DNA of 64,000 nt from an uncultured Gammaproteobacteria bacterium (GTDB taxonomy: Bacteria > Cyanobacteriota > Vampirovibrionia > 2-02-FULL-35-15). Below, one piece after another: positions 20,634 through 63,630 of the stretch (the stretch's first letter is position 1; every line of letters begins with the position of its first letter). The stretch covers positions 86,301-150,300 of the forward strand of contig CAZRTB010000002.1 of the NCBI GenBank assembly GCA_964602915.1, given 5' to 3'. The notes under the pieces were generated by a model. The model was not told the DNA's origin. It ran no database searches and saw only the letters and a program-made list of their open reading frames with translations. A program made the translations under genes and the position numbers.

Positions 20634-22574
20634 TTAGCCAACTAAAGCTTGTTGAGTAGTGAATGTAGATGACTCTAAACCGATTGATGGCTTGTTCTTC
20701 TCATACCACAACTGAAATACTAAAAGATTCCATAATAGTTTTTTATTATCCCATTTTTCATCTAAGTGATTTTGAACAATTTTATCTATAAAGTTATGCT
20801 GAAATAACCCTTGTTTTTTAATGTAATCTTTGCTGGTGTAATGTAATAAAGTGTCTTTTAACTCATGCTTAAGCCATTTAGTTGTAGGAATAGCAAACCC
20901 TTGTTTTTTCTTATAGATAATCCATTTGGGGATATGTTTTTCTGCCATTTTTTTAAGAATATATTTTGATGTAAGTCTATTTAGTTTTAAATCATAAGGA
21001 AGTTTTGCCCCGAATTCCTGAATTGTATAATCTAGAAATGGTGCTCTAACTTCAAGACTGGTAGCCATGCTTGCTCTGTCGACTTTAAATAAAATATCAT
21101 CACTTAAATAAAGTTTTGAAATAAGATAAAGCATCCTGTCTTCATCGTTTGAAATAAATTTACCCCTTAGGTAATTGTTTATTTCAGTAAAAGTATTTTC
21201 TTTTATCTGAGAGCTAATATCAGGATTTAAGAGCATTTCTTTTTCGCTATCAATATATGCCCCCATCCACACGAACATTCTGATTTCGTTAGACAATCCT
21301 ACTCCTCTTAAAAACTGTTTTAATGCGAAAGGAAAGCTTAAGTATGTTTCACGTGCAGGTAGGTTGTTTGCACCAGAGAGAATTATATTTTTAATCTCAC
21401 GTGGGAGAACATTATATAAACCAATTAATCTATGAACAGGAAATATCTGATAACCTGCGAAAAGCTCATCACCACCATCACCGCCCAGGCAGACTTTTAA
21501 TTGTTTGGATGCAAAATTTGAAAGGAAATATGTAGGAAGTATAGAAGCATCTGACATTGGCTCATCTACTAAATCTGCCATATTAGGAATTAGCTTTAAA
21601 CACTCTTTACTGTCGAATAAGAATTGATTATGATCACTTCCTAGTTCTTTAGCAAACCTTGTAGCTATTTTTGATTCGTCAAAAGATTTTTCTTCAAACC
21701 CTATAGAAAAAGTTTTGATAGGATCAGAAGAATGATAAGTCATAAATTTTGCCACAAGACTAGAGTCAATTCCACCGCTTAAAAATACTCCCAGAGGAAC
21801 ATCGCTCATTAAGCGTCTTTTAACTGCTTCTCCAAAAAGTCTTTCTAGCTCTTCTGTAGCTTCCTCTTCTGTGATTTTTAATTTTGGAGCATCGAGAGGT
21901 ATATCCCAATACTGATGTATCTTTACTTCTCCGTTTTCAAGAATGAGAGCCTTGCCTGGCTCAAGCTTGTAAATATTCTTAATAATAGAATGTGGGGAAG
22001 GAATGTTTTCAAAAGAAAGATATTTATTTAGACCTTCAAGATTTAGTTCTTTTTTAATTTCGGGGATAGCTAAAACGCCTTTTAATTCAGAAGAGAAATA
22101 AATTGAACCGTTCTGAAGTGCATAATAGAGAGGCTTTACACCCATTCTATCTCTAGCTAAGAACAATCTGTTTTTATTTTGATCCCATATAGCAAAAGCA
22201 AACATTCCATTCATATGGTTTGGACAATCCAGCCCATATGTTTCATAAAGGTGGATTATAGCTTCATTGTCAGATTTTGTTTTAAATTTATGCCCTTTTG
22301 ATTCAAGGTCTTTTAAAAGGTCAGGGAAGTTATAGATCTCTCCGTTTCCTACCAATGCTATGGAATTGTCTTCATTAAATAAAGGTTGTTTCCCTGTTGT
22401 TAAATCTACGATACTTAATCTTCTATGTCCAAAACCAATGCCATTTCTGTCATCAAAATAAAAACCATCCTGATCTGGACCTCTGTGACTAATAGCAGAA
22501 GTAGCAGTTTCTAGTACCTTTCTATTTACAGGTTCTTTAGAAGTAAAATTATAAATCCCGATAATTCCGCACAT
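20634..22574 (-). CDS. asnB: Asparagine synthetase (glutamine-hydrolysing) family amidotransferase, AsnB/WbpS-like
   Basis: N-terminal MCGIIGIY (Ntn Cys2) with GHRRLSIVD, and a synthetase domain with the PP-loop FLSGGIDSS. Its position in a glycan cluster suggests sugar or uronate amidation rather than housekeeping Asn synthesis. Confidence 0.85.
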   Translation of the reverse strand: MCGIIGIYNFTSKEPVNRKVLETATSAISHRGPDQDGFYFDDRNGIGFGHRRLSIVDLTTGKQPLFNEDNSIALVGNGEIYNFPDLLKDLESKGHKFKTKSDNEAIIHLYETYGLDCPNHMNGMFAFAIWDQNKNRLFLARDRMGVKPLYYALQNGSIYFSSELKGVLAIPEIKKELNLEGLNKYLSFENIPSPHSIIKNIYKLEPGKALILENGEVKIHQYWDIPLDAPKLKITEEEATEELERLFGEAVKRRLMSDVPLGVFLSGGIDSSLVAKFMTYHSSDPIKTFSIGFEEKSFDESKIATRFAKELGSDHNQFLFDSKECLKLIPNMADLVDEPMSDASILPTYFLSNFASKQLKVCLGGDGGDELFAGYQIFPVHRLIGLYNVLPREIKNIILSGANNLPARETYLSFPFALKQFLRGVGLSNEIRMFVWMGAYIDSEKEMLLNPDISSQIKENTFTEINNYLRGKFISNDEDRMLYLISKLYLSDDILFKVDRASMATSLEVRAPFLDYTIQEFGAKLPYDLKLNRLTSKYILKKMAEKHIPKWIIYKKKQGFAIPTTKWLKHELKDTLLHYTSKDYIKKQGLFQHNFIDKIVQNHLDEKWDNKKLLWNLLVFQLWYEKNKPSIGLESSTFTTQQALVG

Positions 22575-22597
22575 GGGTTAGATTATAGCGTATCTTA

Positions 22598-24046
22598 CTA
22601 TACCTTTTGTATTTCTTTTTCCTCTTCTTGGACTTTAATATTAATTTCTTCAGCTGAAGAATGTAAGTTTGCTTTAGGCTTTTTATTATTAGTTTTTAGA
22701 ATATTAAGGATGATTCCCATACCCTCTTCAAATAAAACATTAATATCATGAATTGTTCTTATTTCAAGGATTCGACTAAGAATATAGTTTGGTCTGAAAT
22801 AGAAAGCTTTTATAGCTTTATTTCTAATTCTGTAGAGTTCTTCTTCTGGAAGAAAATGAATTTTTTCTGGACTATGACTCCACTCTGTCCCAGGTCTGAT
22901 TCCTGCTACGTTAAATGATGCAAAACTACAATCAATTTCTTTAGCAAAACTAACTGTTCTCATAATATCTTCTTCAGTTTCACCAGGGAGCCCTATTATA
23001 AAAGTAGCCGCTCTTCTTATACCTTTTTTCTTGCAGAGTTCAAACGCATTTTTAACTTTTTCTACTGTTATTCTTTTTTGGACATCTAAAAGTGTTTTGT
23101 CATTTATACTTTCAATCCCAAAAATTATCGTGTGACATCCTGAAGACTTCATGGCAGAAACCAACTCTTCATTTATAACATCTACTCTGGAAAAACAATA
23201 CCAGGAGAATTTTAAATCTTCTTTTACCATTCTTTCGCAGAGTTCTATAGCACGTTTTTTATTTGCTCCGAAGGTTTGGTCTCTAAAATAAAGTTCTTTT
23301 ACGCCCAATGATTTTAAGTACTTTAGTTCTTCAATGATTTCATCAACAGGTCTTACTTTAAATCCAAGATTATCATTTCTTATAGGACAAAATGAGCAGT
23401 TAAATGCACACCCAAAATCAGTCATTAAGTGAGCTGTAGGAAATTCTCTTGAAAAAGCATATTTGTATTCTTCTAAAGGAAATAATTCATGTTTTGGTGT
23501 AGGTAATGAAAACTCTCCTTTTGGTCTTGAAATACTACCACTAATTATTTTCCCATTCTCACTTTTAAAAATACAGTTTTCAATAGGTTTTGAATCTGAG
23601 TTATTTATTAGTTTAATAATTGAATCATCTGAAAAATCTAAAATACAACCATCAAAAAAGTCATTTTCTTTTATAAAATCTTCACCGTTATCTAAAAACA
23701 CATCTCCAGTTCCAATTATTTTCAGGTCTGGAATTAAGGATTTAATTCCCTGAAGGAATAATTTATCTTCTTTCCATGATATTGTCCCAACTAAAACTAC
23801 TAAATAATCAGGATTAAGTTTTAAGATTCTGTTTTTAGTTTCTAATGGAGAGTAATTTTTTACTAAAGCGTCAATTAAAGCTACATCAAAATTCTCTGAA
23901 TCAAGCCTTCCTGATAAATAAAGCAAATCCATAGGGTAGTGGATGTAACTGCTTTTTGAGACATTATTACAGTAGTAATCTCTAAGGAAAACCTCACTGC
24001 CAGGAGGATTAAGAAGTAGTACTTTAAGTTTATTTTTTGTTTGCAT
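22598..24046 (-). CDS. B12-binding domain radical SAM protein (class B)
   Basis: N-terminal Rossmann-like cobalamin-binding region, then the radical SAM CxxxCxxC motif (GCAFNCSFC) and a TIM-barrel-like remainder. Confidence 0.75.
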   Translation of the reverse strand: MQTKNKLKVLLLNPPGSEVFLRDYYCNNVSKSSYIHYPMDLLYLSGRLDSENFDVALIDALVKNYSPLETKNRILKLNPDYLVVLVGTISWKEDKLFLQGIKSLIPDLKIIGTGDVFLDNGEDFIKENDFFDGCILDFSDDSIIKLINNSDSKPIENCIFKSENGKIISGSISRPKGEFSLPTPKHELFPLEEYKYAFSREFPTAHLMTDFGCAFNCSFCPIRNDNLGFKVRPVDEIIEELKYLKSLGVKELYFRDQTFGANKKRAIELCERMVKEDLKFSWYCFSRVDVINEELVSAMKSSGCHTIIFGIESINDKTLLDVQKRITVEKVKNAFELCKKKGIRRAATFIIGLPGETEEDIMRTVSFAKEIDCSFASFNVAGIRPGTEWSHSPEKIHFLPEEELYRIRNKAIKAFYFRPNYILSRILEIRTIHDINVLFEEGMGIILNILKTNNKKPKANLHSSAEEINIKVQEEEKEIQKV

Positions 24047-24132: not shown

Positions 24133-25629
24133 CTACACTCCTGTAAGAGCTCTAAGTGCTTTTGTATATTTTGCTATGTCTTTTAGTCCTCTTATCCTTG
24201 CAAAATTTCTATAGATTACTTTAGGTTGTTTATAGTATTCATCAAATGCTTTTTTAAGAAGCTCTTGCATTTTCTCTTTTCCAATTTTTGGATTTACATA
24301 AACAGGATTTGAATAGTCAACACAACTATAATCTTTCCATGTAACATCGCTTCTTAGTCCACCATCATCTTTAGCTTGTTGTAAAAGATGTGATCCAGGA
24401 TATGGTACTGGTAAGAAAAATAATGCTGTTTCAGTTCCGAGCTTTTTAGCAAAGGAAATTGTAGTTTCAACATCGTCTACTGTTTCACCAGGAAGTCCTA
24501 AGATATAACTCGCCATTACTTGAATACCAAGCTTTTGACAGTTTCTTATTTCTTGCTCATATTTATTTAATAGATAAGGATTTCCGTTCGGATCATTTGG
24601 ATCGGGCTTAAAAGCAGATGAGTAAGATGCTTTTTTAATTAATTCAAGTGATTTAATATTCCCAGATTCAATACCAATCTGAATCATCCAGCATCCAGCT
24701 TTTTTTAATTCTGTTAGAAGTTCATAATCTAGCTGATCTGCTCTGGCATTACAAGCAAAAGAGATTTTAAAATCCTGTTTCTGGATCTCTTTAAGTAGAC
24801 TCATTATGAAATCTCTTCTTACAGTAAAAACACTGTCAAGAAAATAAATTCCTTTTGCCCCATAATTTTTTACAAGAAATTGAATGTTTTCAATTGCTCT
24901 TTCAACAGTAAGAGATCTTATTTTTCTACCTAGTACTGCTCCATGATCACAATAAGTGCATTGATAAGGACACCCTCTTTGTAAAACCATAGGATAATTA
25001 GGAAGATCAATATACTGAGTTACATGTGGAACATACTTTTCCATTTTTACCTTGTGATATGCAGGGAATGGAAGAGAATCTAAATCTGGAATCGGTGTTC
25101 TTGGAGGAGAGTATTTTACTTTATTTTCTTCTTTACTCCAGTAGGCCAATCCATCAACTTTATGAAAATCTTTTCCTTCGCTTAAACAATTAGCTATATC
25201 AACAAAAGTTTGTTCACCTTCTCCAGTTATTATTAAGTCTGCAGATTTGCATTCGATAACTGTTTGTTCAGGTAATGCAGTAGGGTGAACACCACCTAAA
25301 ACAATTATGGCTTCAGGAGAAACTTCTCTAATTGCTTTGACTGATTCGAAAGCATCTAGAGCTGAATTAGTCATGCATGTGATACCGATTAAATCATATT
25401 TATTATTTTTAATAAATTCTTTTAAGTCATTTATTTTATATCTTTCAACTAAGCAATCTAAAACGTCACAATGAAATCCTTTTGATTCCATATAGCCAGC
25501 AATGTACATAATTCCAAGTGGTGGCACATTGCCACTGCCTTTTTTAAATCTTCCCCACATAATTTCATCAGAAATTGGTGGCTGTAAAACTAGTGTTCTT
25601 ACTTCTTTTTTCATATAGTTTCTATGCAA
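24133..25629 (-). CDS. B12-binding domain radical SAM protein (class B), a second distinct copy
   Basis: It has the CxxxCxxC motif RGCPYQCTYC and an N-terminal B12-binding-like domain (GITCMTNSALDAFESV). It is a paralog in function but diverged in sequence from 22598..24046. Confidence 0.75.
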   Translation of the reverse strand: MHRNYMKKEVRTLVLQPPISDEIMWGRFKKGSGNVPPLGIMYIAGYMESKGFHCDVLDCLVERYKINDLKEFIKNNKYDLIGITCMTNSALDAFESVKAIREVSPEAIIVLGGVHPTALPEQTVIECKSADLIITGEGEQTFVDIANCLSEGKDFHKVDGLAYWSKEENKVKYSPPRTPIPDLDSLPFPAYHKVKMEKYVPHVTQYIDLPNYPMVLQRGCPYQCTYCDHGAVLGRKIRSLTVERAIENIQFLVKNYGAKGIYFLDSVFTVRRDFIMSLLKEIQKQDFKISFACNARADQLDYELLTELKKAGCWMIQIGIESGNIKSLELIKKASYSSAFKPDPNDPNGNPYLLNKYEQEIRNCQKLGIQVMASYILGLPGETVDDVETTISFAKKLGTETALFFLPVPYPGSHLLQQAKDDGGLRSDVTWKDYSCVDYSNPVYVNPKIGKEKMQELLKKAFDEYYKQPKVIYRNFARIRGLKDIAKYTKALRALTGV

Positions 25630-25718: not shown

Positions 25719-26612
25719 GTGTTAAATATGAGTAATGAAGAAAAAATTAGTGTGGTTCTTCCTTGTTTTAATGAAAACAGTGCTATTGAGAAAACAATAG
25801 ATGACATAAAATTTTTGCTTGAACCAATTTTATCTGAGATTGTTGTAGTTGATGATGGTTCTACTGATGGAACTTATCAAGTTTTAAAAAAAAGAAATGA
25901 TATTAAACTTTTGAGGAATTCATATAATAAAGGCTATGGTTTCTCTTTAAAAAAAGGAATTCTTTCTGCACAAAGCGATATTATTGCGATTACAGATGCA
26001 GATGGGACATATCCTATAGAAGAAATCCTATTAATGGTGAAAAAACTTGAAGAAGGATTTGATTTAATTATAGGTAAGAGAGATAATTTACAAAGTTTTG
26101 ATCCGTTCTTAAAAAAGATTTCAAGATTTCTATTTAAACTGATTGCAGAATTCGTTGCTGGTGAAAAAATATTGGATGTTAATTCCGGGTTGAGGGTTTT
26201 TCGCAAAAGTGTAATTTCTAAGTATTTTGTGAATACTTCTAGTGGATTTTCTTTCTCCCTTTCGACAACATTAATTTATATTTTAGAAGGTTTAGCTGTT
26301 TATTATCACCCGATTAAATACAGAGAGAGAATAGGTGAGTCTAAAGTTAAATATCTGAGAGATATTTTAAGATCAGCTCAGATCCTAGTAGAAACAATTG
26401 CTCTATATAACCCTATAAAAATCTTTATGTTGTTTGCCTTGAAAATAAGTGGTTTTGGATTTCTCTTATTACTTATTTCGTTTTTATTTGGAGTTGTAAA
26501 TAGTTCTTTGGCAATAACAGGTTTCTTTATACTTCAAGGACTTGCAGTTTTTACTTTTTCATTGGGGTTAATTTGTTTATTGTTAAAGAAAAGAATTTTT
26601 GCTGATAGATAA
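25719..26612 (+). CDS. GT2 polyprenyl-phosphate glycosyltransferase (GtrB/ArnC/DPM1-like) with a C-terminal TM pair
   Basis: ISVVLPCFNE, VVVDDGSTDGT and TDADGTYP (the DxD region), plus two C-terminal hydrophobic helices typical of GtrB/ArnC-type Und-P-sugar synthases. Confidence 0.75.
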   Translation: MLNMSNEEKISVVLPCFNENSAIEKTIDDIKFLLEPILSEIVVVDDGSTDGTYQVLKKRNDIKLLRNSYNKGYGFSLKKGILSAQSDIIAITDADGTYPIEEILLMVKKLEEGFDLIIGKRDNLQSFDPFLKKISRFLFKLIAEFVAGEKILDVNSGLRVFRKSVISKYFVNTSSGFSFSLSTTLIYILEGLAVYYHPIKYRERIGESKVKYLRDILRSAQILVETIALYNPIKIFMLFALKISGFGFLLLLISFLFGVVNSSLAITGFFILQGLAVFTFSLGLICLLLKKRIFADR

Positions 26613-28265
26613 ATGGCTGATTTAAAAAATTCAAAGTTCTTTTATCCCATATTAATCTTTTTAATTTGGCTTTTCATGTATATTATTTGTAACTCTTTGT
26701 GGGAACATCAAATATGGTGGGATGAAACTTCTTATCTAAGTACAGCTAGAGGAATTGTTAGGGACTTTGATTTCAGCAGTAGAACTACAACAGTTCAAGG
26801 GACTTTAAAATATAATTTTCCCCAGCATACCCATCATTACCCTTTACATTCTGTGTATATGGCAATTTTCCTTAAACTGTTTGGAGACAATTTAAATTCT
26901 GGGTATCTCTCTGTGTGGATAAGTGGTTTAATAACAGTTTTATTTATTTATCTAACTTGCAATTTATTCTTTCCAGAGAAAAAATTCCTTTCATTTATTG
27001 TTGGGATCTCATTTATGTTTTTCCCTAGGATACTTCATTATTTTGATTCGGGGATGATGGAAATCCCATGCTGTGCACTGCTTTCAATGACTTCCTGTTT
27101 CGTTTTTAAGAATCTTAAGTTAGGAAAAATAAATCCTTTTTTGATTGCTTTGTTTTCAATATGGCTTTATTGTTATAAAAGTCTTTTTGTTGGAACTGTT
27201 TTTGGCTTTTTAGTTTTAATAATACTTTCATCTGCTTTTAAAGATTTAAATATTAAGTCTAAATTTAATGGATTTCAAAATGTTTGTGTCTATCTTGGGC
27301 TTTTTGTTTTCTTATATATAGTTCTCTCCAAATTTATATTTTTATCACTAGCGCCCATGATGAATTTTCTATCTAGATTAGAAACTCCTGAGGGTGCTTA
27401 TGCGGATTTTGCAGGAGGATTTTTAAGTGATCCTTTTGGCTATATTAAAATAAGCCTTGCTATCTTGTACCAAAATTTTATAGTTAATTACTCTATTTAT
27501 AATGTTGTTCGAGAAAATGGACTAGATGCTTTTTATGTTTCTATTCCAAATGTCTATGAATATAATATTTATTTAATTACTATATTTTTTATAAGTGTAT
27601 TTCTAATAACTTTATGGAAGAGAATTAATTCGCTTGGAAGACTGTATATTTTATTTACAATATCATCAATATTCTTTATGAATTTCTTTTTTGCATTAAT
27701 TGCTGGAGGCTCTCCGGGAATACTTTGCAGGTACAATATTCATTTTGTCCCTAATTTATTAATTTCATTTGTAATTATTTTAAATGAGTTAAAAAATGAC
27801 TTTATGAAATTTTACTTACCAAATAAAGTAGCTATTAATATTATTTCTTGCACACTTTTTCTGATTGTTTATATTCCATATTATAGATCTGCAAATGCTG
27901 TTATGGATTGGGAGAAAAAAACTTATTCTGGTATAGCTAATGGGAATTCAAAACTAATAGAGAAATTTACAGGAAACACAAATCTAAGATTTATCTATTT
28001 TACTGTGGGAAATCATTCTACTTGGAATAATTACCCTTTAAGGGTTATAGCTATGGAGGCTACTGGTGAACAGATTAAGAAGCTGAATTATAAGCTTGGA
28101 GTACCTATAGAATATCTTTTTATTTTTCCTCATAATTATCTTTTTAAAGAAAATCAGGATAAAATCTTAAAAGCCCTTCCTATAATTGATAATTGGTATA
28201 CTTTTTATGGATTTGATAAAGATAGTAAAGTGTTTGTTTATAGGTTTAATCCGGTAAATAAATGA
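26613..28265 (+). CDS. GT-C fold glycosyltransferase, ArnT/PMT-like (PMT_2, GT39/GT83-like)
   Basis: Polytopic membrane protein. After TM1, the first loop carries WWDETSYLSTARGI (compare ArnT PDETRYAEI and the PMT DE motif). It starts immediately after the GT2 stop (26612/26613). Confidence 0.5.
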   Translation: MADLKNSKFFYPILIFLIWLFMYIICNSLWEHQIWWDETSYLSTARGIVRDFDFSSRTTTVQGTLKYNFPQHTHHYPLHSVYMAIFLKLFGDNLNSGYLSVWISGLITVLFIYLTCNLFFPEKKFLSFIVGISFMFFPRILHYFDSGMMEIPCCALLSMTSCFVFKNLKLGKINPFLIALFSIWLYCYKSLFVGTVFGFLVLIILSSAFKDLNIKSKFNGFQNVCVYLGLFVFLYIVLSKFIFLSLAPMMNFLSRLETPEGAYADFAGGFLSDPFGYIKISLAILYQNFIVNYSIYNVVRENGLDAFYVSIPNVYEYNIYLITIFFISVFLITLWKRINSLGRLYILFTISSIFFMNFFFALIAGGSPGILCRYNIHFVPNLLISFVIILNELKNDFMKFYLPNKVAINIISCTLFLIVYIPYYRSANAVMDWEKKTYSGIANGNSKLIEKFTGNTNLRFIYFTVGNHSTWNNYPLRVIAMEATGEQIKKLNYKLGVPIEYLFIFPHNYLFKENQDKILKALPIIDNWYTFYGFDKDSKVFVYRFNPVNK

Positions 28266-29905: not shown

Positions 29906-29908
29906 AGA

Positions 29909-30802
29909 TTGATAGAACTTATTTCAAAAGATAAAGATATTTTAAAGAAGCTGTCAACTGCTTTACATGAATCAACTGGAGACTTGTTGGATTTAGATTC
30001 AAAAGTAATCGCAGAAGAGTTTCTGTCTTATAAAAGAGCTAAAGAACAAATTGATTTATTTATTAAAACAGTTAATGAGTATGAAAAATATGATTTTAAA
30101 AATAAGAAATTCTTAGAGGTTGGATGTGGAGTAGGATCTTCACTTATAGTAGCTAAGAAAGATTATTCTATAGATGCTTTTGGAGTAGAACCATCATCTA
30201 AAGAGTTCTCTTCATTTAAAGAAATATCTTTACTCTTATTTAAAGAGCATAATTTATCAGATGAAATAATAATTAATTCTACTGCTGAAAGTCTTCCTTT
30301 TGAAAGTGAAACCTTTGATTTGGTTTATTCTACAAATGTTCTTGAACATGTAAATGATCCTGTTAAAGTTTTAAATGAATCGTACCGAGTCCTGAAAAGA
30401 GGTGGATTTTTGCAGTTTGTTATCCCAAACTATTTCTCTTTTTGGGAGGGACATTACGGGGTGTTTTGGCCTTGTATTACAAACAAAACATTAGGAAAGA
30501 TATATGCAACAATTATAGGTAAAAACCCTAAATATGTTGATTCTCTTCAGCTTATAAATCCTGGTTATTTAAAAAACATATTGAAAGATTTAGAGAATAA
30601 AATTGAAGTAATTGGTTGGGGAAAAGAAGTATTTAAAAACAGATTGGAAAATGGAAATTATTCTGACTGGGCATCTCTACAAAAAATTAGACCGCTAGTT
30701 GAAATTGTACAAAAAATTAAACTATCTTCCCTTATTTCAAGTACCTTAAATCTATTTGAAATGTATACTCCTATAGTTTTAACTTTTAAGAAGTTAAAAT
30801 AG
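29909..30802 (+). CDS. Class I SAM-dependent methyltransferase (Methyltransf_11-like)
   Basis: Motif I LEVGCGVGSSL, motif post-I DAFGVEPS and motif II/III DLVYSTNVLEHV...RVLKRGGFLQF. The apparent start is TTG. Confidence 0.65.
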   Translation: MIELISKDKDILKKLSTALHESTGDLLDLDSKVIAEEFLSYKRAKEQIDLFIKTVNEYEKYDFKNKKFLEVGCGVGSSLIVAKKDYSIDAFGVEPSSKEFSSFKEISLLLFKEHNLSDEIIINSTAESLPFESETFDLVYSTNVLEHVNDPVKVLNESYRVLKRGGFLQFVIPNYFSFWEGHYGVFWPCITNKTLGKIYATIIGKNPKYVDSLQLINPGYLKNILKDLENKIEVIGWGKEVFKNRLENGNYSDWASLQKIRPLVEIVQKIKLSSLISSTLNLFEMYTPIVLTFKKLK

Positions 30803-55503: not shown

Positions 55504-57581
55504 CTTTTTAATTTTGATTTTAAAAATTCAATTCTTTTTAATGTTCTACTAGCGCTTGCATCGTCATTTAGCTTTATGTATGCTGAATATGCATTCTCTA
55601 AGTCTTCTATAGAATGATGTCTTAGCCCATACACGTATGAAAATTTAGCAAAGTTTTTTAAGTCACCTTTTAACCCATAAATTTTTGTCAGAACTAAAAG
55701 AGTAAAAACATCATATGGAAAATATTTATATGCAAACAATGCATGTTCTTCTATTTGATTTAAATCTTTATATTTGATTTGAATGAGATCACAATACGGA
55801 TAAATTAACCTTGTTGAATAAGGGTATAGTTCAAGTGCTTTTTTAAAAACCACTTCAGCAGAATCAATTTGATTGTCGAAATAAAGTGTTGATGCATAGA
55901 ATGCTAACCCTGCTGAGTCTAGCTTTGATAGATTATTTACAAAAGGTTTAATGTTTTTCAGCGCTAATTTATGATTTTCATTTGAAAGGGAAAAAATAGC
56001 TTGAGAAAGCAGATATCCGGATTTACAAAGGAAGCTTTCAGGATCAATTCCATAGCTCTTTAATATGTGAGGAGTCTTATCTTGATATTTTTCTTTCTCA
56101 GATTGGTAAAACTGAACTGCTAGATTAAGTTCATCAATTGCTTTCAATTGGTATTCAATTGGGACTTCTCGTTCTGGATACTGTGAAAAAATCTTATCTT
56201 GTGGTGTTAATCCTTTATATCTTATTGCTTTAAAAAGATGATTGTTTGTGGATTTAATTACTGACTCATATAAGGATTGGCTGTTTTTCCAGTCTTGTAG
56301 CCTGAAATATGACCTTCCTCCAAATATTAAAACCATTGTTATGAGAATGAAAGTTATTACCTTTGATTTTCTTGAATAATAGTTTAAGTAATGAGATAAG
56401 CCAAATATGAATATAAAAGAAGGGAAGTATAAGTATCTTTCACTAGCAAAGTTGTAAATAGGGGCAATTATCTGAGAATAAGGAACTAAAGCAATAAAAA
56501 ATAAAGATATTGTCAGGAAGAAAAAAATTAACTTTGACTTATTTCTAACGATTGCATATAAAGAAGTCAGGAATATAGCTGTCATAAAAACAATACAAAA
56601 GATTGCATAAGGATCATAAATTGCTTTCCCGAATCGTACTAGATTAGTTTGGTCTATAGAAAGTTTTAATGGGAATAACAGAAGCTTCAAAAAGTGGAAA
56701 AGGACTTGAGGAGAAAGCCAGAGTATTCTTTCGAAAATTAATAACATAGAAGTTTGTGATGTGAAATTTACTTTTGTATTAGAAAAAATAAACAATATAA
56801 TATAAATAAAAGAAGCACTTATAAAAGGAATAATTGAAAAGATAGACTTTTTAACTGTTTCTAATAAACCACATTTATTTTTTGAAAGATAAAGTATTGA
56901 AGTGTAAGAAATAAGTACTAAAGGTATAAAAAAGTGAAATTCAGCTGTTAATAGAGCAAAGGAATAGGTGAAAAAGATAAGAAGATTCTTTAACAAGGAG
57001 ATTTTTTCAAATTCATAGCTTTTTAAGAATGAATCTAAATATAAATAAATTGCTATAAGGCTAAATGTATAGCTTAAAACTATATTTGCATTTGTTAGAA
57101 GTAAAACAGATTCTATATTACTAGGATGAATTGCCCATAATAGTACTAATAATGAACATATAACTAATTTTTCAATATGAACATTTGACTTTAGATTTAG
57201 TACCTTAGAAGTTAATATATAAAGAATAGAAGCATTAATTAAATGAAGTATAAGACTGTATAGGTGATAATTTACTGGATTCTTTTTAAAAAGGACTTGA
57301 ATTAATAGCTGTAAGAAATTTCCAAAAGGATTACACCTCAAGGAGACTATATTTGAATAAGTGGTATTTCCTGCTTCAAAATGTTGTTTTAATCCAAGCC
57401 ATGAAATCAATTCAAACATCTCTGAAAAACTAAAACATACTGGAAGGTATGTTTCTTTAAAAGGCATAAGTTCATCATAAGATCTAACCTTAAAAAAAAC
57501 TGATGGTAGAAAAAATAAAAATATAACTAGAATTGTTAAAAACAAAGTCAAATATATTTTTGGTGTTTTGCTCATAAACAA
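55500..57581 (-). CDS. TPR-repeat-containing GT-C (PMT_2/TMTC-like) membrane glycosyltransferase, paralog 1 of 5 (first gene of the operon)
   Basis: VRSYDELMPFKE, FEAGNTTYSNIVSLRCNP, YHLYSLILHLINASILYIL, ERYLYFP and LQDWKNS. The ATGA overlap with the next gene (55500-55503) indicates translational coupling. Confidence 0.5.
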   Translation of the reverse strand: MFMSKTPKIYLTLFLTILVIFLFFLPSVFFKVRSYDELMPFKETYLPVCFSFSEMFELISWLGLKQHFEAGNTTYSNIVSLRCNPFGNFLQLLIQVLFKKNPVNYHLYSLILHLINASILYILTSKVLNLKSNVHIEKLVICSLLVLLWAIHPSNIESVLLLTNANIVLSYTFSLIAIYLYLDSFLKSYEFEKISLLKNLLIFFTYSFALLTAEFHFFIPLVLISYTSILYLSKNKCGLLETVKKSIFSIIPFISASFIYIILFIFSNTKVNFTSQTSMLLIFERILWLSPQVLFHFLKLLLFPLKLSIDQTNLVRFGKAIYDPYAIFCIVFMTAIFLTSLYAIVRNKSKLIFFFLTISLFFIALVPYSQIIAPIYNFASERYLYFPSFIFIFGLSHYLNYYSRKSKVITFILITMVLIFGGRSYFRLQDWKNSQSLYESVIKSTNNHLFKAIRYKGLTPQDKIFSQYPEREVPIEYQLKAIDELNLAVQFYQSEKEKYQDKTPHILKSYGIDPESFLCKSGYLLSQAIFSLSNENHKLALKNIKPFVNNLSKLDSAGLAFYASTLYFDNQIDSAEVVFKKALELYPYSTRLIYPYCDLIQIKYKDLNQIEEHALFAYKYFPYDVFTLLVLTKIYGLKGDLKNFAKFSYVYGLRHHSIEDLENAYSAYIKLNDDASASRTLKRIEFLKSKLKR

Positions 57582-57999
57582 CTTAAGCTTATATTTATTT
57601 TTTGTATTACTTTATTTTTTATTTATATTTTTTTTATAATATGGGGGATTATTTTTAGTAAATATCTTTTTTACCTATTAGGAAGTCTCCTAAACTTTTT
57701 AAAACTATGGATAGGTAATGAACTAGGAGAGAAAAAGAAACCCTATATATAATGAACAATAAAGCAGTCAAAACGTGTATTACGATATGTGAGTATTTCG
57801 AGTTAAATAAAATTGTTGTTAACAGGAACTTTATGATTGTGTTGAAGTTCATTCAAACTCGTGTATTCTTTAACTTGGCGTGTTAAGTACAAATCTTTTT
57901 AGTTTTATTTTATGGAATTAAAAAGAATTCGGCCTTAACACAAAAAAGTTATATAAAGGTTAAGTAACATTAACTAAAAATTTAAAGGAGTAGAAATTA

Positions 58000-60900
58000 A
58001 TGAAATTGATTTCATCGAAAAAGACTAAACGCCAGATAGCGTTATTGTTTGTTTTCGCATTCATGCTTTCAAATCTTCTGTCATTATTTGGCCCAAGTGC
58101 CAATGCGGCAGTAACGATTACAGCCCCATCAGCTGGAACCTGTTTTCAACACACAGGAACCACTGCAAGCGGTGCACTAGTAACGGTTTATAATATAGGT
58201 ACAGTTCAAGTTTCCTTAACAGCATCAGAAGTCACACCTGGTGATGATGCTGCAGCTACAGATGGTATTACAGCTGGCGTAGCAAGAGCAACACTTGCTG
58301 GTAGTATTTCAGCAGCTTCAGATGTAATCGGAAACGTATTTAGTATTGTTCCTCCAACAGGTACAAACTTTGTTATCGTTCCTGGTTTTGCAGATACAGC
58401 GGCTACTAACCATTTAGCAGCTGCTAATGCTTCAATCTCAAACACTTCATCAAGTGATACTTCAGCATCAGTTGATAGTACATTAGGTGTAAGCGTAGGT
58501 GTTGTAACAACAGGTACATCTGGTATCGGTAGAGCTATCGTTGCAATTGCAAGAGATGCAGGTGACGAAGTTTATCCTAAATCAGGTACATCAACAAATA
58601 CAGTTACAGTTTCATTCAATGGATTAGGTATTGCTATACCACCATCCGGAGATGGTTCATTAAGTGGTACATTACAAGCAACATTTGATTCAACACCTCC
58701 ATCAGGAATCGGTGTATCAGGTGGTGCTTCAGCAGCAGCAGTTGCTTCAGGTATTCCTGGCTTAAGTGGAACACTTAATCTTTGTACAGTTACAACAACC
58801 GCTAACCAATTAGAAGCAGTTTCAGATGCAGATGATGATACTACAGATCTTTATGATAAAACAGCATCATCCTCAAACTTAATTGCTCTTAGCCAAATTG
58901 GTTCATTTACATCATTAACAGCTCAAGATTTAGCTACAAATACAGCTACACCAAGAGTTGACCTTGAGCCAATCCTTATTAGAGGTACTACAGGTACAGG
59001 TACAGCTACAAGAGACCAAGTTTTCGCAACTGGTGAACTCTTAAGCGATATCGATACAAATGCAGAATCTCCATCTACATCAGCTCTTGATTTAGCGACA
59101 GCATTTGGTAATAACGTTATTACACCAATTACTATTGCATTCTCTGATGACAATGCTACAGCAACAACAACACTTAATGCAGTAGACATTATTATTGAAA
59201 ATTCAACTGCTCCTACAACAGCAGCTGGTTTCAGTGCAACACAATCATCAAGATTTGGTTTCTTGGGAGCTCTTAGAGCCGCTCAAATCGCTGGTGGTAA
59301 TACAGCTTCAGTAACAGCATTCGTAGCTGGTTCGCACTGGGGTATTACATCAAACAGAGGTGATACAGCAGTAGTTCAAGAAGCTAACCGTGCTAACGCT
59401 AACAACACCGTATTAAATGGTAGTTTTGGTGGCTTAAATGCAAACAATACAGAACCATTTAATGACACTTTTGTTGACTTAAGAATTAACTGTGATGGAT
59501 CAGCTCCAGTTGCAGGTTGGTTTGCTATCGGTAACGGATCAAATGCAGGCGCACAAGCTGCATTCGGTACTACAGCAAATACAAATCAATTGCTTGCTAG
59601 ATCACAAGCAGGTTCAAAACTACTTGTTAGTAGCTTAAGCAATTTCTACACACAAAATCTTACAAACATTGCAGGTACAACACCAGGAACTACAGTAGCT
59701 GGAGACTTCAATCCAACTCCATTCTTAGGTGGTGCTAATGCAATTGTTGTTGACTCAACACTTAGAAATAATGCTCTCTTATATGCATCATGTGCTAATA
59801 ACACATTAACCTTATTCCCAATTCAGGATGCTTTCGATGCTACAAGAGATATTCTTGCTATTACTCCTAAGTTGACAGTCTCAAATATCAGCAATACATT
59901 GTCATCTGATACAAATATCGTTGCTCAAATTTCTGGTAATAACTTAAGTGGTACAACAACACTTAACTTAACCAAGTTACTTGGAGCAATTGGTACATCA
60001 GGTGGTCAAACCAGCACACTTGCAGCAGCTACCGGAGTCGGACTTTCAGAAGCCGCTCAGTTAGCAATTAACTGTTCAAGTGGTAGCTCATCAACAGTAA
60101 CTCTTAGCAGTGTAACCGCTACATCACTGGATGCTACAGTAGCAGCAGCATGTACAAGTGGTTCTATTGCAACCCCTCCAGCACTCTTTAAGGGTGGTGC
60201 GCCAAATACAGTTTCTGGAACTACAGTAATTGATGGTTCACCAGTTGTTCAGAGTGAAGGCAGAGGTGTTTTACTCAAAGAGTTAAGCGCAACTGGTTTC
60301 AGCGAATTAGTTAACAAAGTCGGTGGTGGTTCAACCGGAACTGTTATCGAAGTACAACTCCCAAGTGGATGTGATGTAATCGATGATAGAGACGATAACA
60401 ATACAGCAGCAGCATCAGGTGGTGGTGGTAACGATGTAACTATGTTTACACTTACTTCAACTGCAGGTGTTTCAGTCGCTGCAACAGGTATTGGTACTAC
60501 TCCAGCTGATTTAACCGTAGTAAATGCAGTCATTCCTTCAACAGGAGCTGACCCAGCATTATTACACTTCGGTTTCACCTCAGCTTCAGGTGTTGGTACT
60601 GATGCAACTACAACAGACGCAGTTCTTTTAAGACTTGATGCTCAAGACATCTTCTGCCCTTCAACAGTTGCAGATGGTGCTTTAACAGGTCTTGTAAGAG
60701 CACAAAACAAAACAGTAAGCCCAACAATAACTGAAAACTTAGGATCAGTAAGTTTCGGTACAGCAACAAGTGCGGCAACATTCTCAATTGCAGATGATGT
60801 AGTAACCTCAACAAAAGGTGAAACTTCAACTAATACAATGATTGGTACAACACCAAGATTGTCAGGTGGAAGTGTAACTACAGCAAATCCATTTAAGATT

Positions 60901-62013
60901 GTTGAAAACAATGCAAGATCTTTCCCAATTGGTGGAAGAGTTTCAGCACGTAACTTGGATCCAGAAAACACAGTTCTTTCCGCAGTAATTACTAAGGGTC
61001 AACTCTGGGTAGTACCAGCAGCTTCAACAGCATTTTCAACTGCTCCAGCAGCTGCAGACGTATCCTTCTCAGATAACTCAATCGTAATTGATGGAAATCC
61101 TTACATCGTTACATCAGCAACAGTAGATCCAAACCCACCTTTAGGAACATTAGTAATTCCTATTAAGAAAGGTTCTGGAGATCCTACTGTTAACACAACT
61201 ACAGTTACAGTAAGAAATCTTAAACTAGGCGCGGCTACATCAAGTACAACTGATTTAGTTGCATCAGTTCAGTTCTTCTTACAAGATGCAGGTGTAGTAG
61301 TTAACACACCAGGTATTGCATCTGGTAACAGTGCTACAACTCCTACACTCTTTACACCATATGTTAGAGGTGGAACCAAAGCAGGTACTCAGCTAAATAC
61401 AGCTGGTGTCCAACTTGGAACTGGTTCATTAGCAAATTCATTGCTAACTTCCAGATTAACTACTGAAGGTGCTCCTCAACTTAGCCCATTTGCAACCGTA
61501 GTATCATCAGCTAAAAATGCAGATGCTTCAAAGATTACTGTTTCAGCAACAGCTGTAGCAGGATCAAGCGGTTCAACTTCAACAGATAATACAGTAACCG
61601 TAACAGGTGCTGCAGGATCAGTTGACGGTGGTGCTCAAGTTGTTGTCACTACAGGTAGTGGAACCACTACATATGATTCTGTAACAGTAGTTTCATCTAC
61701 TGATGGATCATTCACAGCTAAGCTCAGAGGTGATTGTGCAAGTCCAGCTACAAGTGTTTCAGTTACAGTTGCAGAATCAGTTAGTGGAACAGCCACTACA
61801 TCTGTAAGTAAGACAGCACTGTGTAATGGAAGTACAGGTGATACAGCAGACTCAGTATTTACTGAAATTGCTGGAGCAGACGGTACTGCAACAATTACTG
61901 AAGTGCTTAACTACATCACTTCAAAAGGCGGTTTATCAGCAGTTATTTCAGCAGGTGGAGCAACACTTGATGGAGTAATCAAGGCTGTTAAATCAGTTCT
62001 TGGACTTAGCTAA
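58000..62013 (+). CDS. Giant secreted Thr/Ser/Ala/Gly-rich low-complexity surface protein (putative S-layer or mucin-like glycoprotein), 1337 aa
   Basis: SD aaaggag 8 nt upstream and a signal peptide MKLISSKKTKRQIALLFVFAFMLSNLLSLFGPSANA. The rest is dominated by T/S/A/G/V with very few charged or aromatic residues. There is no RTX GGxGxD motif or LPxTG motif. A strong terminator follows. Confidence 0.65.
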   Translation: MKLISSKKTKRQIALLFVFAFMLSNLLSLFGPSANAAVTITAPSAGTCFQHTGTTASGALVTVYNIGTVQVSLTASEVTPGDDAAATDGITAGVARATLAGSISAASDVIGNVFSIVPPTGTNFVIVPGFADTAATNHLAAANASISNTSSSDTSASVDSTLGVSVGVVTTGTSGIGRAIVAIARDAGDEVYPKSGTSTNTVTVSFNGLGIAIPPSGDGSLSGTLQATFDSTPPSGIGVSGGASAAAVASGIPGLSGTLNLCTVTTTANQLEAVSDADDDTTDLYDKTASSSNLIALSQIGSFTSLTAQDLATNTATPRVDLEPILIRGTTGTGTATRDQVFATGELLSDIDTNAESPSTSALDLATAFGNNVITPITIAFSDDNATATTTLNAVDIIIENSTAPTTAAGFSATQSSRFGFLGALRAAQIAGGNTASVTAFVAGSHWGITSNRGDTAVVQEANRANANNTVLNGSFGGLNANNTEPFNDTFVDLRINCDGSAPVAGWFAIGNGSNAGAQAAFGTTANTNQLLARSQAGSKLLVSSLSNFYTQNLTNIAGTTPGTTVAGDFNPTPFLGGANAIVVDSTLRNNALLYASCANNTLTLFPIQDAFDATRDILAITPKLTVSNISNTLSSDTNIVAQISGNNLSGTTTLNLTKLLGAIGTSGGQTSTLAAATGVGLSEAAQLAINCSSGSSSTVTLSSVTATSLDATVAAACTSGSIATPPALFKGGAPNTVSGTTVIDGSPVVQSEGRGVLLKELSATGFSELVNKVGGGSTGTVIEVQLPSGCDVIDDRDDNNTAAASGGGGNDVTMFTLTSTAGVSVAATGIGTTPADLTVVNAVIPSTGADPALLHFGFTSASGVGTDATTTDAVLLRLDAQDIFCPSTVADGALTGLVRAQNKTVSPTITENLGSVSFGTATSAATFSIADDVVTSTKGETSTNTMIGTTPRLSGGSVTTANPFKIVENNARSFPIGGRVSARNLDPENTVLSAVITKGQLWVVPAASTAFSTAPAAADVSFSDNSIVIDGNPYIVTSATVDPNPPLGTLVIPIKKGSGDPTVNTTTVTVRNLKLGAATSSTTDLVASVQFFLQDAGVVVNTPGIASGNSATTPTLFTPYVRGGTKAGTQLNTAGVQLGTGSLANSLLTSRLTTEGAPQLSPFATVVSSAKNADASKITVSATAVAGSSGSTSTDNTVTVTGAAGSVDGGAQVVVTTGSGTTTYDSVTVVSSTDGSFTAKLRGDCASPATSVSVTVAESVSGTATTSVSKTALCNGSTGDTADSVFTEIAGADGTATITEVLNYITSKGGLSAVISAGGATLDGVIKAVKSVLGLS

Positions 62014-62030
62014 TAGCTAAGAGAAATTTA

Positions 62031-62060: not shown

Positions 62061-62165
62061 CAAAAAAATTATTATATTTAGACTATTAGTCGAAAAAAAT
62101 TAGATAAAAAAGTAAAAAGTTTCCAATAATTAGTTTTATCGAAGGAAAAGGTGGAGGAAAATAAA

Positions 62166-63575
62166 ATGGTCAAAAGAGCAACTTCATTAGTGTTAGCATT
62201 GTTGCTTTTAACTGGTATCTATTCAAATATTCCAGCTAAAGCACAAGTAACAGCAACACCAACACAAGCTGTAATCACAGTTAGTGGTGTGCCAGCTAAT
62301 ACAACAAATCTAGCTGTTGAAGTAACAGTAGATTCTTCAGTTGTTACATTAGGAGGTGCATCAACAAGTGCTTCAGGTGCAATTGCTGCATCAGGAAGTA
62401 ATGGTGTTGGTGTCGTATCAACAACAGGCAGTTTGCCAGATAGTTTTACAATTACAGTAGGTCTTACTGGAGTAGCAGTAGGAACATCTGCAGTTACTCT
62501 TGGTAATGTAAAAGATACCTTAGGATCGTCAGGTGTTGTAATTAGTGGTGTAACAGCGATGGCTGATACAAGTTCAGTAACAGTTGCATCATCATCAACT
62601 ACTACATCATCAACGACATCATCATCAAGTTCAACTGGTGGTGGAACACTTAGTACAGATACATTTACAATAATGGTTACAGGTGAAGCAGTTAAACAAA
62701 CTACAGCACTTAATGTAACATTAGCATTTGCAGATTCATCAATTGCTCAGTTAGATACAACTGGTGTAACAGTTACAGGAAGTGGCATTACACAGTTATT
62801 AACTAATTCAGATTCAGCAACAAGTGTAGTATCAGCAGTATGGAGTGGAACTTCAACTGATGGTACCGTTACAATTACTGGAAAATTAAAACCAGGAACT
62901 ATGGGTGGAACTACAACAGTAGGAATAGCTAAAGTTGAAGCTGCAGGTGGAACAGACATTACTTCAAATGTCGTAGCATCAGTTGACCCAACTAGCATTA
63001 CTAATGGTTCTGGTTCATCATCAAGCGGAGTCGGTTCATTTACATTAATCGGACCATCTTCAGCTACTGGACCAGGAAAAGTAGCAGTTTCATTCTCAGC
63101 AACTGGAGCTTCTAGTGATATTATGGCAACCTTAAATGGTTCTACAGTATCATTCTTTAATGGAAACAGTGTAGGGGTAGCAATTATTGATATCTCAACA
63201 GCTGGTTCAATTCCACTTTCATTAGTAGCAACTAGTGGTGGTTCAAGTGCAACAGTTAATCTTGGTAATATTACAGTTACTCAAGGAACTGGTAAAGCAC
63301 CTAAAGTTAAAACAGCTTCTGTAAGCAACAAGTCTACAGGAACTAAATTAACTGTAACTGGTAAAGCATTTGCTAAGGATTCAACTACCGTAACAATTGC
63401 TCCAACAGATCACTCAGCTACAACAACAAAAGTTAAAGGCACATCAATCATGGCATCTTACTCATCTTCAGAGTGTATACCAAATGGTAGCTTCGTAAAT
63501 GTAAGCACACCAGGTGGTACATCATCTAAGAAGATTACCGTAAGAGGTACCTGTGCTAATAGCTTAGCTCCTTAA
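62166..63575 (+). CDS. Secreted Thr/Ser/Gly-rich low-complexity surface protein (about 470 aa); likely partner or paralog of the 1337-aa protein
   Basis: ATG at 62166 preceded by the SD ggtggagg. The ORF-track start at 62151 is a GTG inside that SD. Signal peptide MVKRATSLVLALLLLTGIYSNIPAKAQ. The body is T/S/G/V/A-rich and includes a poly-Ser/Thr tract SSSTTTSSTTSSSSSTGGG. Confidence 0.6.
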   Translation: MVKRATSLVLALLLLTGIYSNIPAKAQVTATPTQAVITVSGVPANTTNLAVEVTVDSSVVTLGGASTSASGAIAASGSNGVGVVSTTGSLPDSFTITVGLTGVAVGTSAVTLGNVKDTLGSSGVVISGVTAMADTSSVTVASSSTTTSSTTSSSSSTGGGTLSTDTFTIMVTGEAVKQTTALNVTLAFADSSIAQLDTTGVTVTGSGITQLLTNSDSATSVVSAVWSGTSTDGTVTITGKLKPGTMGGTTTVGIAKVEAAGGTDITSNVVASVDPTSITNGSGSSSSGVGSFTLIGPSSATGPGKVAVSFSATGASSDIMATLNGSTVSFFNGNSVGVAIIDISTAGSIPLSLVATSGGSSATVNLGNITVTQGTGKAPKVKTASVSNKSTGTKLTVTGKAFAKDSTTVTIAPTDHSATTTKVKGTSIMASYSSSECIPNGSFVNVSTPGGTSSKKITVRGTCANSLAP

Positions 63576-63600
63576 TAAAGAGCATAGTGTTCTATAAAGA

Positions 63601-63630
63601 GGGGGGCCTTAAAGCTCCCCTTTTTTATTT
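63601..63630 (+). terminator. Rho-independent terminator after the second surface protein gene
   Basis: Stem ggggggc / gctcccc (one G-U wobble), loop cttaaa, followed by ttttttattt. Confidence 0.7.

Follow-up and report, generated by a model that had tools for sequence, protein, structure and literature searches.

We analyzed a stretch of 64,000 nucleotides (the window, with position 1 as its first letter) from contig CAZRTB010000002.1 of an uncultured member of the Vampirovibrionia (GCA_964602915.1), which contains all but the right end of a putative surface-glycosylation island. The window has a G+C content of about 30%, and the island spans about 47 kb, from position 20634 to roughly 67.8 kb in window numbering, which is about 4 kb beyond the window end; a sequence-only reading of the same DNA had put its size at about 43 kb. 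All genes listed in that reading were recovered at the same positions, its soluble enzymes were confirmed with Pfam and NCBIfam hidden Markov models (HMMs), and the ten large polytopic membrane proteins that it had counted are real. They fall into four paralogue groups: 550 and 547 amino acids (aa), 948 aa, 774 and 769 aa, and five proteins with tetratricopeptide repeats (TPRs). These five form a tandem array that lies divergent to an operon for secreted proteins, and this part of the island consists of the following features:

47001..49181, minus strand: TPR/membrane paralogue 1, 726 aa, TMTC/TfpW-like in architecture, with an orthologue clade of its own
49181..51505, minus strand: TPR/membrane paralogue 2, 774 aa, the copy modelled with AlphaFold2 and used for the topology
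51539..53458, minus strand: TPR/membrane paralogue 3, 639 aa, assigned by alignments and tree
53461..55503, minus strand: TPR/membrane paralogue 4, 680 aa, also assigned by alignments and tree
55500..57581, minus strand: TPR/membrane paralogue 5, 693 aa, the copy closest to the surface-protein gene, with orthologues that are 46-58% identical
57582..57999: intergenic region separating the array from the divergent surface-protein operon, with AAAGGAG (a strong Shine-Dalgarno sequence) 8 nt before the ATG at 58000
58000..62013, plus strand: secreted all-beta multi-domain protein of 1,337 aa, proposed as the main acceptor, characterized by its signal peptide, orthologues, and model
62166..63575, plus strand: secreted protein of 469 aa, second candidate acceptor, with 34% Ser+Thr and a 16-residue poly-Ser/Thr tract
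63733..64000 and then off the window (5736-6698 of metagenome contig L001), plus strand: third secreted protein, 320 aa, Lys-rich, without a Pfam match

The five tandem TPR proteins (639-774 aa) are 33-36% identical to each other, and for paralogue 2 we found about 97 relatives, every one of them in Melainabacteria. The AlphaFold2 model of this paralogue, built with 68 homologues, scored high (pLDDT 94, pTM 0.91) and predicts a first membrane helix, a 70-residue loop with two short helices and a beta hairpin, ten more membrane helices, and a TPR solenoid, with an amphipathic helix (residues 272-295) between helices 7 and 8. By the positive-inside rule, the Lys/Arg counts indicate that the N-terminus is cytoplasmic, as is the first short loop, and the TPR domain and the long loops are therefore predicted to face the periplasm. 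According to the model, the invariant or nearly invariant polar residues of the family all lie in these outward loops. Loop 1 carries, 7 residues after helix 1, an invariant aspartate (D40) followed by a glutamate (E41) that is at least 90% conserved (49-68 sequences). Other conserved sites are H151-P152...E156...N163, E208, and E277-R278...W281, and both D303-Q304 and E372-R373-Y374-x-Y376 are invariant or nearly so, with the ERYxY motif preceding helix 10. A fold search with the model returned lists filled by TPR matches, including protein-binding solenoids of the OGT/SPY type.

In their overall architecture these proteins resemble enzymes known from humans and from Pseudomonas. Eukaryotic TMTC1-4 are O-mannosyltransferases of cadherins and belong to the GT-C/PMT clan. 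The human enzymes combine 11 helices with TPRs on the lumenal side, and their loops carry distinct motifs: loop 1 has DD, loop 3 has KE, loop 4 has a DW that closes its juxtamembrane helix, and loop 5 has ERxxY (PMC7801869). The island proteins likewise have about 11 helices followed by non-cytoplasmic TPRs, occur as several paralogues, and show corresponding motifs (loop 1, DD/DE; loop 3, an acidic residue; loop 4, D-x following the juxtamembrane helix; loop 5, ERxxY), as matched by position and not by alignment. TMTC substrates are folded beta-sandwich domains, and such domains are also predicted by the model of the 1,337-aa protein. Unlike TMTCs, the island TPR proteins match neither DUF1736 nor PMT_2 (the sequence-only reading had labelled all five as PMT_2), come from a bacterial host, are unlikely to use dolichyl-phosphate-mannose (Dol-P-mannose) as a donor, and are at most candidate homologues of TMTCs. 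TfpW of Pseudomonas aeruginosa (646 aa) has 11 helices, DDX in loop 1, and a periplasmic TPR domain; it O-glycosylates pilin with a polyprenyl-phosphate sugar as the donor, and its gene lies beside pilA (bioRxiv 10.1101/2020.04.19.049825). The island proteins share with TfpW the 11 helices, the periplasmic TPR domain, the acidic motif in loop 1, and the position of their genes beside a gene for a secreted protein, a likeness to its described architecture. In contrast to the single tfpW gene, the island loci contain 5 to at least 11 tandem paralogues, and where TfpW transfers D-Araf (D-arabinofuranose) to pilin, the presumed acceptor in the island is the 1,337-aa beta protein and the sugars presumably derive from deoxythymidine diphosphate (dTDP)-glucose or uridine diphosphate N-acetylglucosamine (UDP-GlcNAc). 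Based on the model, we describe the TPR proteins as TMTC/TfpW-like in architecture without assigning them to a known family, and we consider it quite likely that all five are GT-C transferases.

When species-representative genomes were scanned with the TPR family, 12 loci were identified, all in Melainabacteria, and further loci came from look-ups and from metagenomes scanned reciprocally with the 1,337-aa family; the open reading frames (ORFs) of these loci were annotated against the window proteins. Relatives of the island proteins that are specific to the lineage were found only in metagenome-assembled genomes, mostly from groundwater, that bear the names Candidatus Melainabacteria or Candidatus Caenarcanales, and the window is therefore assigned to the non-photosynthetic sister lineage of the cyanobacteria. 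Gene order is kept across the related loci: genes for a PglF-like dehydratase, a DegT aminotransferase, and the 320-aa, 469-aa, and 1,337-aa proteins are followed, in divergent orientation, by the TPR array and one to three DUF2298 genes, then by genes for an acetyltransferase, a SPASM enzyme, a flippase-like protein, a methyltransferase, RmlA, RmlB, and a YfhO-like protein, and finally by those for a carbamoyltransferase, a GT4, a second methyltransferase, proteins of the 550-aa type, and a GT2. The PglF-like/DegT/320-aa side of this order is kept in loci L025-L034, and DUF2298 orthologues are present in every related locus. The array and the 1,337-aa orthologue are adjacent and divergent in all ten loci with a visible junction (the window, L008, L017, L024, L027, L028, L030, L031, L034, and L041), as tested in both directions. 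The co-localization of the array with genes for Thr/Ser-rich proteins, which the sequence-only reading had proposed, was thereby found in 10 out of 10 informative loci, and its proposed linkage to the GT2 gene was also seen in related genomes, together with linkage to the 550-aa-type, YfhO-like, rmlAB, flippase-like, and SPASM genes. In a neighbour-joining tree of the TPR membrane domains, orthologue clades keep their order across genomes next to some recent duplications, suggesting that the array duplications are old and have been retained, as expected for enzymes of differing specificity.

The array varies in size from 5 copies in the window to at least 11 in L019 (L019:1-22070; GCA_947085685.1, CAMTXM010000007.1), where the paralogues lie head to tail on one strand and run off both ends of the 22-kb locus. 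One metagenome contig (L026:8471-10564) has a TPR/membrane gene that separates the DegT gene from the PglF-like gene, beyond the surface-protein operon as seen from the array. Several genomes also encode a deep TPR/membrane clade, not found in the window, between the flippase-like gene and the gene for a membrane-anchored methyltransferase (L007:18850-21117, L012:7622-9862, L013:10395-12653, and L016:5918-8137).

The 1,337-aa protein is acidic (93 Asp+Glu versus 54 Lys+Arg) and contains 26% Ser+Thr, with Thr, Ser, Ala, and Gly together making up half of its residues. Its approximately 40 orthologues are 1,310-1,388 aa long and 50-70% identical, and they share 10 invariant Cys and many invariant Gly, Pro, Asp, and Asn residues. 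Because of this near-constant length and these invariant residues, we regard the protein as a folded structural protein and not as a mucin. The model, of moderate confidence (pLDDT 72), is almost entirely beta and matches strings of immunoglobulin-like domains, as in adhesins, pilins, integrin legs, and a Chlamydomonas mastigoneme glycoprotein, with low template-modelling scores (TM-scores) over the whole chain. G+C content reaches 40-42% over positions 58000-62013 versus 27-30% in the adjoining genes. A foreign origin of this 58-62 kb segment was considered and rejected: the rise coincides exactly with a single gene that has many Ala, Gly, and Thr codons and keeps its syntenic position throughout the clade, and it therefore reflects composition and not recent transfer. 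Half-length homologues (approximately 695 aa) of the C-terminal half of the protein, with 33-38% identity, were found in L036-L040 and L042 (e.g. L038:7824-9923). They sit between genes for 2-oxoacid:ferredoxin oxidoreductase subunits and glmS, with heme genes near and without a TPR array, and we dropped them as a functional clue in view of these housekeeping surroundings.

For the next gene of the operon, an ORF of 474 aa had been listed, and its true start at ATG 62166 gives the 469-aa protein, whose orthologues follow the 1,337-aa gene in every related locus. The gene for the 320-aa protein in turn follows the 469-aa gene in each of these loci, and this protein contains an internal duplication (TLFIPIKIDTMVVDFDKV / TIFIPVIYDKSVVDIDET).

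The proteins that may form, move, and use a lipid-linked sugar are encoded to the left of the array:

25719..26612, plus strand: putative GT2 polyprenyl-phosphate sugar synthase, GtrB/ArnC/PgfS-like (Glycos_transf_2, E 1e-28)
26613..28265, plus strand: 550-aa polytopic protein of GT-C type with a WDE motif after helix 1 (sub-threshold PMT_2 and GtrII)
28262..29905, plus strand: 547-aa paralogue of the 550-aa protein (32% identity, E 7e-81)
33897..36743, plus strand: 948-aa polytopic protein, remote relative of the YfhO family (GT-C) by its phmmer relatives
39611..40603, minus strand: LPG_synthase_TM 'flippase-like' membrane protein (PF03706, E 3e-36; TIGR00374 above cut-off)
42294..44618, minus strand: 774-aa polytopic DUF2298 protein (PF10060, 35 bits versus a cut-off of 27.8, gathering score passed)
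44695..47004, plus strand: 769-aa paralogue of the 774-aa DUF2298 protein (23% identity, E 9e-46)

The top NCBIfam matches of the GT2 are a Dol-P-hexose transferase, AglJ, ArnC, PpgS, and PgfS, all below their cut-offs, and its two membrane helices are C-terminal (residues 235-277). The stop of its gene at 26612 abuts the start of the 550-aa gene at 26613, an arrangement like that of GtrB and GtrC. The LPG_synthase_TM protein is the candidate flippase for the lipid-linked sugar; no match to the small flippases of the GtrA family was found among the island proteins, nor is there space for a small ORF.

Of the labels that the sequence-only reading had given to the polytopic proteins, some were kept in part and others replaced. 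'ArnT-like', used for the 550-aa family, is backed by sub-threshold matches to PMT_2 and GtrII (PMT_2 19.7 bits versus a cut-off of 26.1) and by an hhalign comparison (62% probability) in which the family profile aligns with Escherichia coli ArnT and its W-D-E motif falls on the catalytic P-D-E region of ArnT. Within this motif D37 never varies, and W36 and E38 each reach at least 90% conservation. ArnT (5ezm) was the sole match of the profile in the PDB (E 0.27), with DE aligned. The family is rare, with 33 representatives in 1.84 billion proteins, and profile comparison indicates that it is homologous to the YfhO-like family (hhalign 93.8%, E 2e-7, 390 columns). The label 'YfhO-like' itself, used for the 948-aa protein, held in that its relatives in phmmer searches (E 1e-25 to 1e-7, up to 73% of the query) carry PF09586 (YfhO) or PF10131, and failed in that the protein has no direct Pfam match, even at E<=10; by its sequence it would be a remote YfhO relative and not a member by curated cut-off. 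The 774-aa protein, which had been called one of two 'novel paralogs', matches DUF2298 above the gathering score, a family that we take to belong to the Pfam GT-C clan, and the DUF2298 family profile showed no link to the other island families or to the PDB. Phmmer searches of the PDB with the 948-, 550-, 774-, and 1,337-aa proteins gave no matches.

The remaining genes of the island in the window encode enzymes that would make and tailor the sugars:

20634..22574, minus strand: AsnB-family glutamine amidotransferase of the exopolysaccharide (EPS)-locus type (Asn_synthase, E 2e-89, and GATase_7)
22598..24046, minus strand: radical S-adenosylmethionine (SAM) enzyme of the B12-binding class (Radical_SAM, E 4e-26)
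24133..25629, minus strand: B12-binding radical SAM enzyme (B12-binding, E 5e-23, and Radical_SAM, E 2e-23)
29909..30802, plus strand: SAM methyltransferase (Methyltransf_11, E 9e-19)
30786..31979, minus strand: GT4 glycosyltransferase, cytoplasmic and nucleotide-sugar-using (Glycos_transf_1, E 3e-42)
31976..33769, minus strand: NodU/CmcH-type carbamoyltransferase (Carbam_trans_C, E 7e-59, and Carbam_trans_N, E 3e-39)
36730..37701, minus strand: dTDP-glucose 4,6-dehydratase, RfbB/RmlB (TIGR01181, 463 bits versus a cut-off of 365)
37686..38756, minus strand: long-form glucose-1-phosphate thymidylyltransferase, RmlA (TIGR01208, 337 bits versus a cut-off of 320)
38781..39611, minus strand: SAM methyltransferase with two C-terminal membrane helices (Methyltransf_23, Methyltransf_11)
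40605..41693, minus strand: radical SAM/SPASM enzyme (Radical_SAM and SPASM)
41743..42297, plus strand: hexapeptide acetyltransferase, WcaF/WbbJ-like (Hexapep; NCBIfam matches below cut-offs)

The amidotransferase scores 601 bits with TIGR03108, an XrtA-system family, which is below the cut-off, and passes the cut-off of TIGR01536; the label 'WbpS-like' that it had received in the sequence-only reading was wrong or overstated. The top NCBIfam matches of the radical SAM enzyme at 22598..24046 are B12-binding radical SAM families, all under their cut-offs, and its likeness to HpnJ and PhpK is at the superfamily level only. The membrane-anchored methyltransferase (38781..39611) is 58-76% identical in related loci, always lies beside the flippase-like gene, and may act on the lipid-linked sugar at the membrane. 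The SPASM enzyme is encoded by the best-conserved gene of the island (74-84% identity between genomes versus 40-50% for its neighbours). SPASM enzymes usually target peptides or proteins, and this one may therefore modify the surface protein instead of a sugar. In L022 (L022:2444-4347), genes for small SxtJ (PF19588) and DUF5989 proteins and for GDSL-like acylhydrolases replace the carbamoyltransferase region of the window, and the tailoring set therefore differs between genomes.

On the right, the flank was read from a 12-kb metagenome contig (L001) that encodes identical proteins and reaches 6.5 kb beyond the window. The 469-aa gene is followed there by genes for the 320-aa secreted protein, the DegT aminotransferase, and the PglF/WbpM-type dehydratase, which by its NCBIfam match is likely a membrane-anchored UDP-GlcNAc 4,6-dehydratase; past the PglF-like gene lie rpmG, a small ORF, and genes for a histidine phosphatase and an amidase. 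The 20 kb to the left of the island are housekeeping (thrS, an rpoD-type sigma factor gene, prs, gyrB, DciA, recF, and tRNA-Val), the tRNA being the sole match of an Rfam scan, which found none in the intergenic region 57582..57999. Wzx, Wzy, Wzz, Wza, and ATP-binding cassette (ABC) transporters were found neither among the 25 island proteins nor in the flanks (20 kb left and 6.5 kb right; approximately 74 kb in all), and the island and flanks likewise gave no matches to an initiating phosphoglycosyl transferase, WaaL/PglL (Wzy_C), or STT3/PglB. The sequence-only reading, which had reported no such exporter in the island, was right on this point, and an exporter set just outside the window, which it had named as a finding that would speak against it, is absent from both the housekeeping genes on the left and the 6.5 kb on the right.

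Some genes of the left flank deserve mention. Directly left of the island, positions 18671-20464 (plus strand) encode a 597-aa protein with a signal peptide and without a Pfam match, whose N-terminal part gives a weak LptC/OstA-like match (TIGR04409, E 5e-6, below cut-off). Judging from this match, it may be a divergent LptD-like assembly protein for lipopolysaccharide (LPS), which would imply a diderm cell with LPS. Further to the left are genes for a DciA-family protein between gyrB and recF (16867-17187, minus strand; PF05258, E 1e-11), a secreted GHL10-family glycoside-hydrolase-like protein (265-2652, plus strand), a protein weakly resembling protein N-terminal asparagine amidohydrolases (11060-11776, plus strand), and a beta-flower (Bflower) domain protein (12042-12725, minus strand).

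The gene content of the island can be compared with further known systems. In streptococci, GtrB/PgtC2 and PgfS/PgfM1/PgfM2 pair a GT2, which makes an Und-P-sugar, with a YfhO-type GT-C enzyme to glycosylate Ser/Thr-rich regions of surface proteins, and the Pgf cluster also encodes the acceptor adhesins (PMC12041528). Parallels in the island are its PgfS-like GT2, the protein remotely related to YfhO, and the poly-Ser/Thr tract of one secreted protein, but it is far larger, belongs to a presumed diderm, and adds extensive sugar tailoring and a dominant, separate TPR-bearing family. With gtrABC, CsbB-YfhO-GtcA, and ArnC-ArnT it would share a GT2 polyprenyl-phosphate synthase, a flippase, and periplasmic GT-C proteins, and its 550-aa family aligns with the catalytic N-terminal region of ArnT. 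It differs from these systems in that the LPG_synthase_TM protein replaces a flippase of the GtrA or ArnE/F type, and in that the array is tied to a surface-protein operon, with no polysaccharide backbone genes near the island. Loci of the Wzx/Wzy, ABC, and PglB/PglL types also contain rmlAB, DegT, PglF-like dehydratase, acetyltransferase, and GT4 genes; the island is unlike them in lacking Wzx, Wzy, Wzz, Wza, ABC, initiating transferase, WaaL/PglL, and STT3/PglB genes.

Together, these observations lead us to propose, with moderate confidence, that the region is a clade-specific surface-glycosylation island of about 47 kb in groundwater Melainabacteria, in which GT-C enzymes, and not a polysaccharide pathway of the Wzx/Wzy or ABC type, use single sugars linked to a lipid phosphate to O-glycosylate the adjacent surface proteins. 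The mechanism that we infer would begin in the cytoplasm, where RmlA and RmlB together with the PglF-like dehydratase and the DegT aminotransferase would make activated sugars. These presumed sugars would be tailored by the amidotransferase, the carbamoyltransferase, two or three methyltransferases, the acetyltransferase, and three radical SAM enzymes. The GtrB/ArnC-like GT2 would load the sugar onto polyprenyl phosphate, the putative lipid donor, and the LPG_synthase_TM protein, as a presumed flippase, would move the lipid-linked sugar across the membrane. Transfer would then take place outside the membrane by the ten periplasm-facing proteins: the two ArnT/YfhO-related, one YfhO-like, two DUF2298, and five TMTC/TfpW-like TPR proteins. 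In the TPR enzymes, if they are catalytic as we presume, the periplasmic solenoid would hold the protein substrate, most likely the 1,337-aa and 469-aa proteins, which would be O-glycosylated after Sec export. The sequence-only reading had argued for direct glycosylation of protein acceptors outside the membrane; the computational predictions from this idea held, and the protein acceptor itself is still something that we infer.

A number of points weigh against this proposal. The 1,337-aa protein is not mucin-like and has only four Ser/Thr runs of at least 4 residues, and one polyprenyl-phosphate GT2 is visible versus ten putative transferases. O-antigen, teichoic acids, and lipid A are further targets of GtrB/GT-C systems, and family membership does not fix the acceptor, which could instead be a glycolipid or a polysaccharide; the probable LptD-like gene at the left edge of the island would make LPS available for this role. 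As for the TPR family, Pfam matches in the membrane domain were found in 0 out of 49 relatives and in none of the five window copies, and sequence and profile searches of the PDB returned TPR matches only for the whole family and nothing for the membrane domain alone. In hhalign comparisons, the TPR membrane profile reached 0.1% with ArnT, 1% with DUF2298, 9% with the 550-aa family, and 37% with the YfhO-like family, and the fold search of the model did not reach past its TPR domain. Polysaccharide secretion proteins also contain TPR domains.

Some of these points would fit an explanation that we hold to be less probable, but of real weight, in which the same machinery builds or decorates a non-protein acceptor, such as LPS core, lipid A, an O-antigen-like or periplasmic glycan, or a glycolipid, and the 1,337-aa protein, without being glycosylated itself, belongs to an S-layer or sheath and binds or is anchored to that glycan. 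S-layer protein genes often lie beside the genes for their anchoring glycan, which we count in its favour, and the mycobacterial Emb/Aft GT-C enzymes, which build arabinan, offer a model for periplasmic glycan assembly. A polymer that is assembled step by step would account for ten transferases, and the best alignment of the 550-aa family is with the lipid A transferase ArnT. The amidotransferase and the GT4 show likeness to families of EPS loci (XrtA/PEP-CTERM system), the probable LptD-like gene abuts the island, and O-antigen and teichoic acids are the best-known targets of GtrB/GT-C and CsbB/YfhO systems (PMC12041528). However, a polymerase, ligase, exporter, and initiating phosphoglycosyl transferase are all missing from the approximately 74 kb, and the counterparts that combine TPRs with 11 helices, TMTC and TfpW, both act on proteins, with the tfpW gene beside that of its substrate. 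The adjacency of array and surface-protein gene in 10 out of 10 loci also argues for a protein acceptor. It is improbable, in our view, that the TPR proteins are membrane-anchored assembly, chaperone, or export factors for the surface protein and that only the YfhO/ArnT-like and DUF2298 proteins transfer sugars. Such a role would agree with the frequent use of TPR proteins as scaffolds, with a membrane domain that has no detectable glycosyltransferase homology, and with the TPR-only results of the fold search, but the invariant charged residues occur only in periplasmic loops, with D-E and ERYxY at the positions of the catalytic and phosphate-binding motifs of TMTCs, and 5 to at least 11 anciently diverged paralogues in fixed order better fit enzymes of differing specificity. 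Finally, the NCBIfam matches to HpnJ (both B12 radical SAM enzymes) and HpnL (the flippase-like protein), which rank at or near the top, weaker ones to HpnA (an epimerase) and HpnB, and the likeness of a GT2 to the HpnB/HpnI type raised the idea that a membrane lipid, for instance a polyol of the hopanoid type, is what the island modifies. We rejected such a pathway as hardly credible: all these matches are far below their cut-offs (HpnJ 204 bits versus 578), the region has no squalene-hopene cyclase or other hpn genes, and the ten large transferases and the conserved surface-protein operon would be left unexplained.

The proposal of a protein-glycosylation island allows a bolder version, which is speculative and, in our estimation, unlikely to hold in full. 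The array would be the bacterial counterpart, and possibly an evolutionary relative, of TMTC1-4, its membrane domain would represent a new GT-C family, and each paralogue would use its TPR solenoid to recognize its own folded beta-sandwich domain or site on the giant surface protein, or would add its own tailored sugar, yielding a domain-specific pattern of O-glycans. The general logic of the system, a sugar on a lipid phosphate combined with GT-C enzymes, is already known. New are the dominant putative transferase family, which is not recognized by Pfam, NCBIfam, or PDB sequence searches, its expansion into ordered tandem arrays, and a giant, unannotated surface protein that is tightly coupled to the array in a lineage without cultured members.

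If our proposal is correct, these non-photosynthetic relatives of cyanobacteria would have an extensive set of enzymes devoted to the glycosylation of a surface protein beyond the membrane, centred on a TPR-bearing transferase family that no current database recognizes. The pairing of the array with the gene of its presumed substrate could be used to study how TPR-bearing GT-C enzymes, such as the human TMTCs, select the folded domains of their protein substrates. The proposal would also predict unusual surface sugars, namely 6-deoxy or amino sugars that are C- or O-methylated, carbamoylated, amidated, or acetylated. Such sugars would bear on phage recognition and on cell-cell interactions in an abundant, uncultured groundwater lineage.

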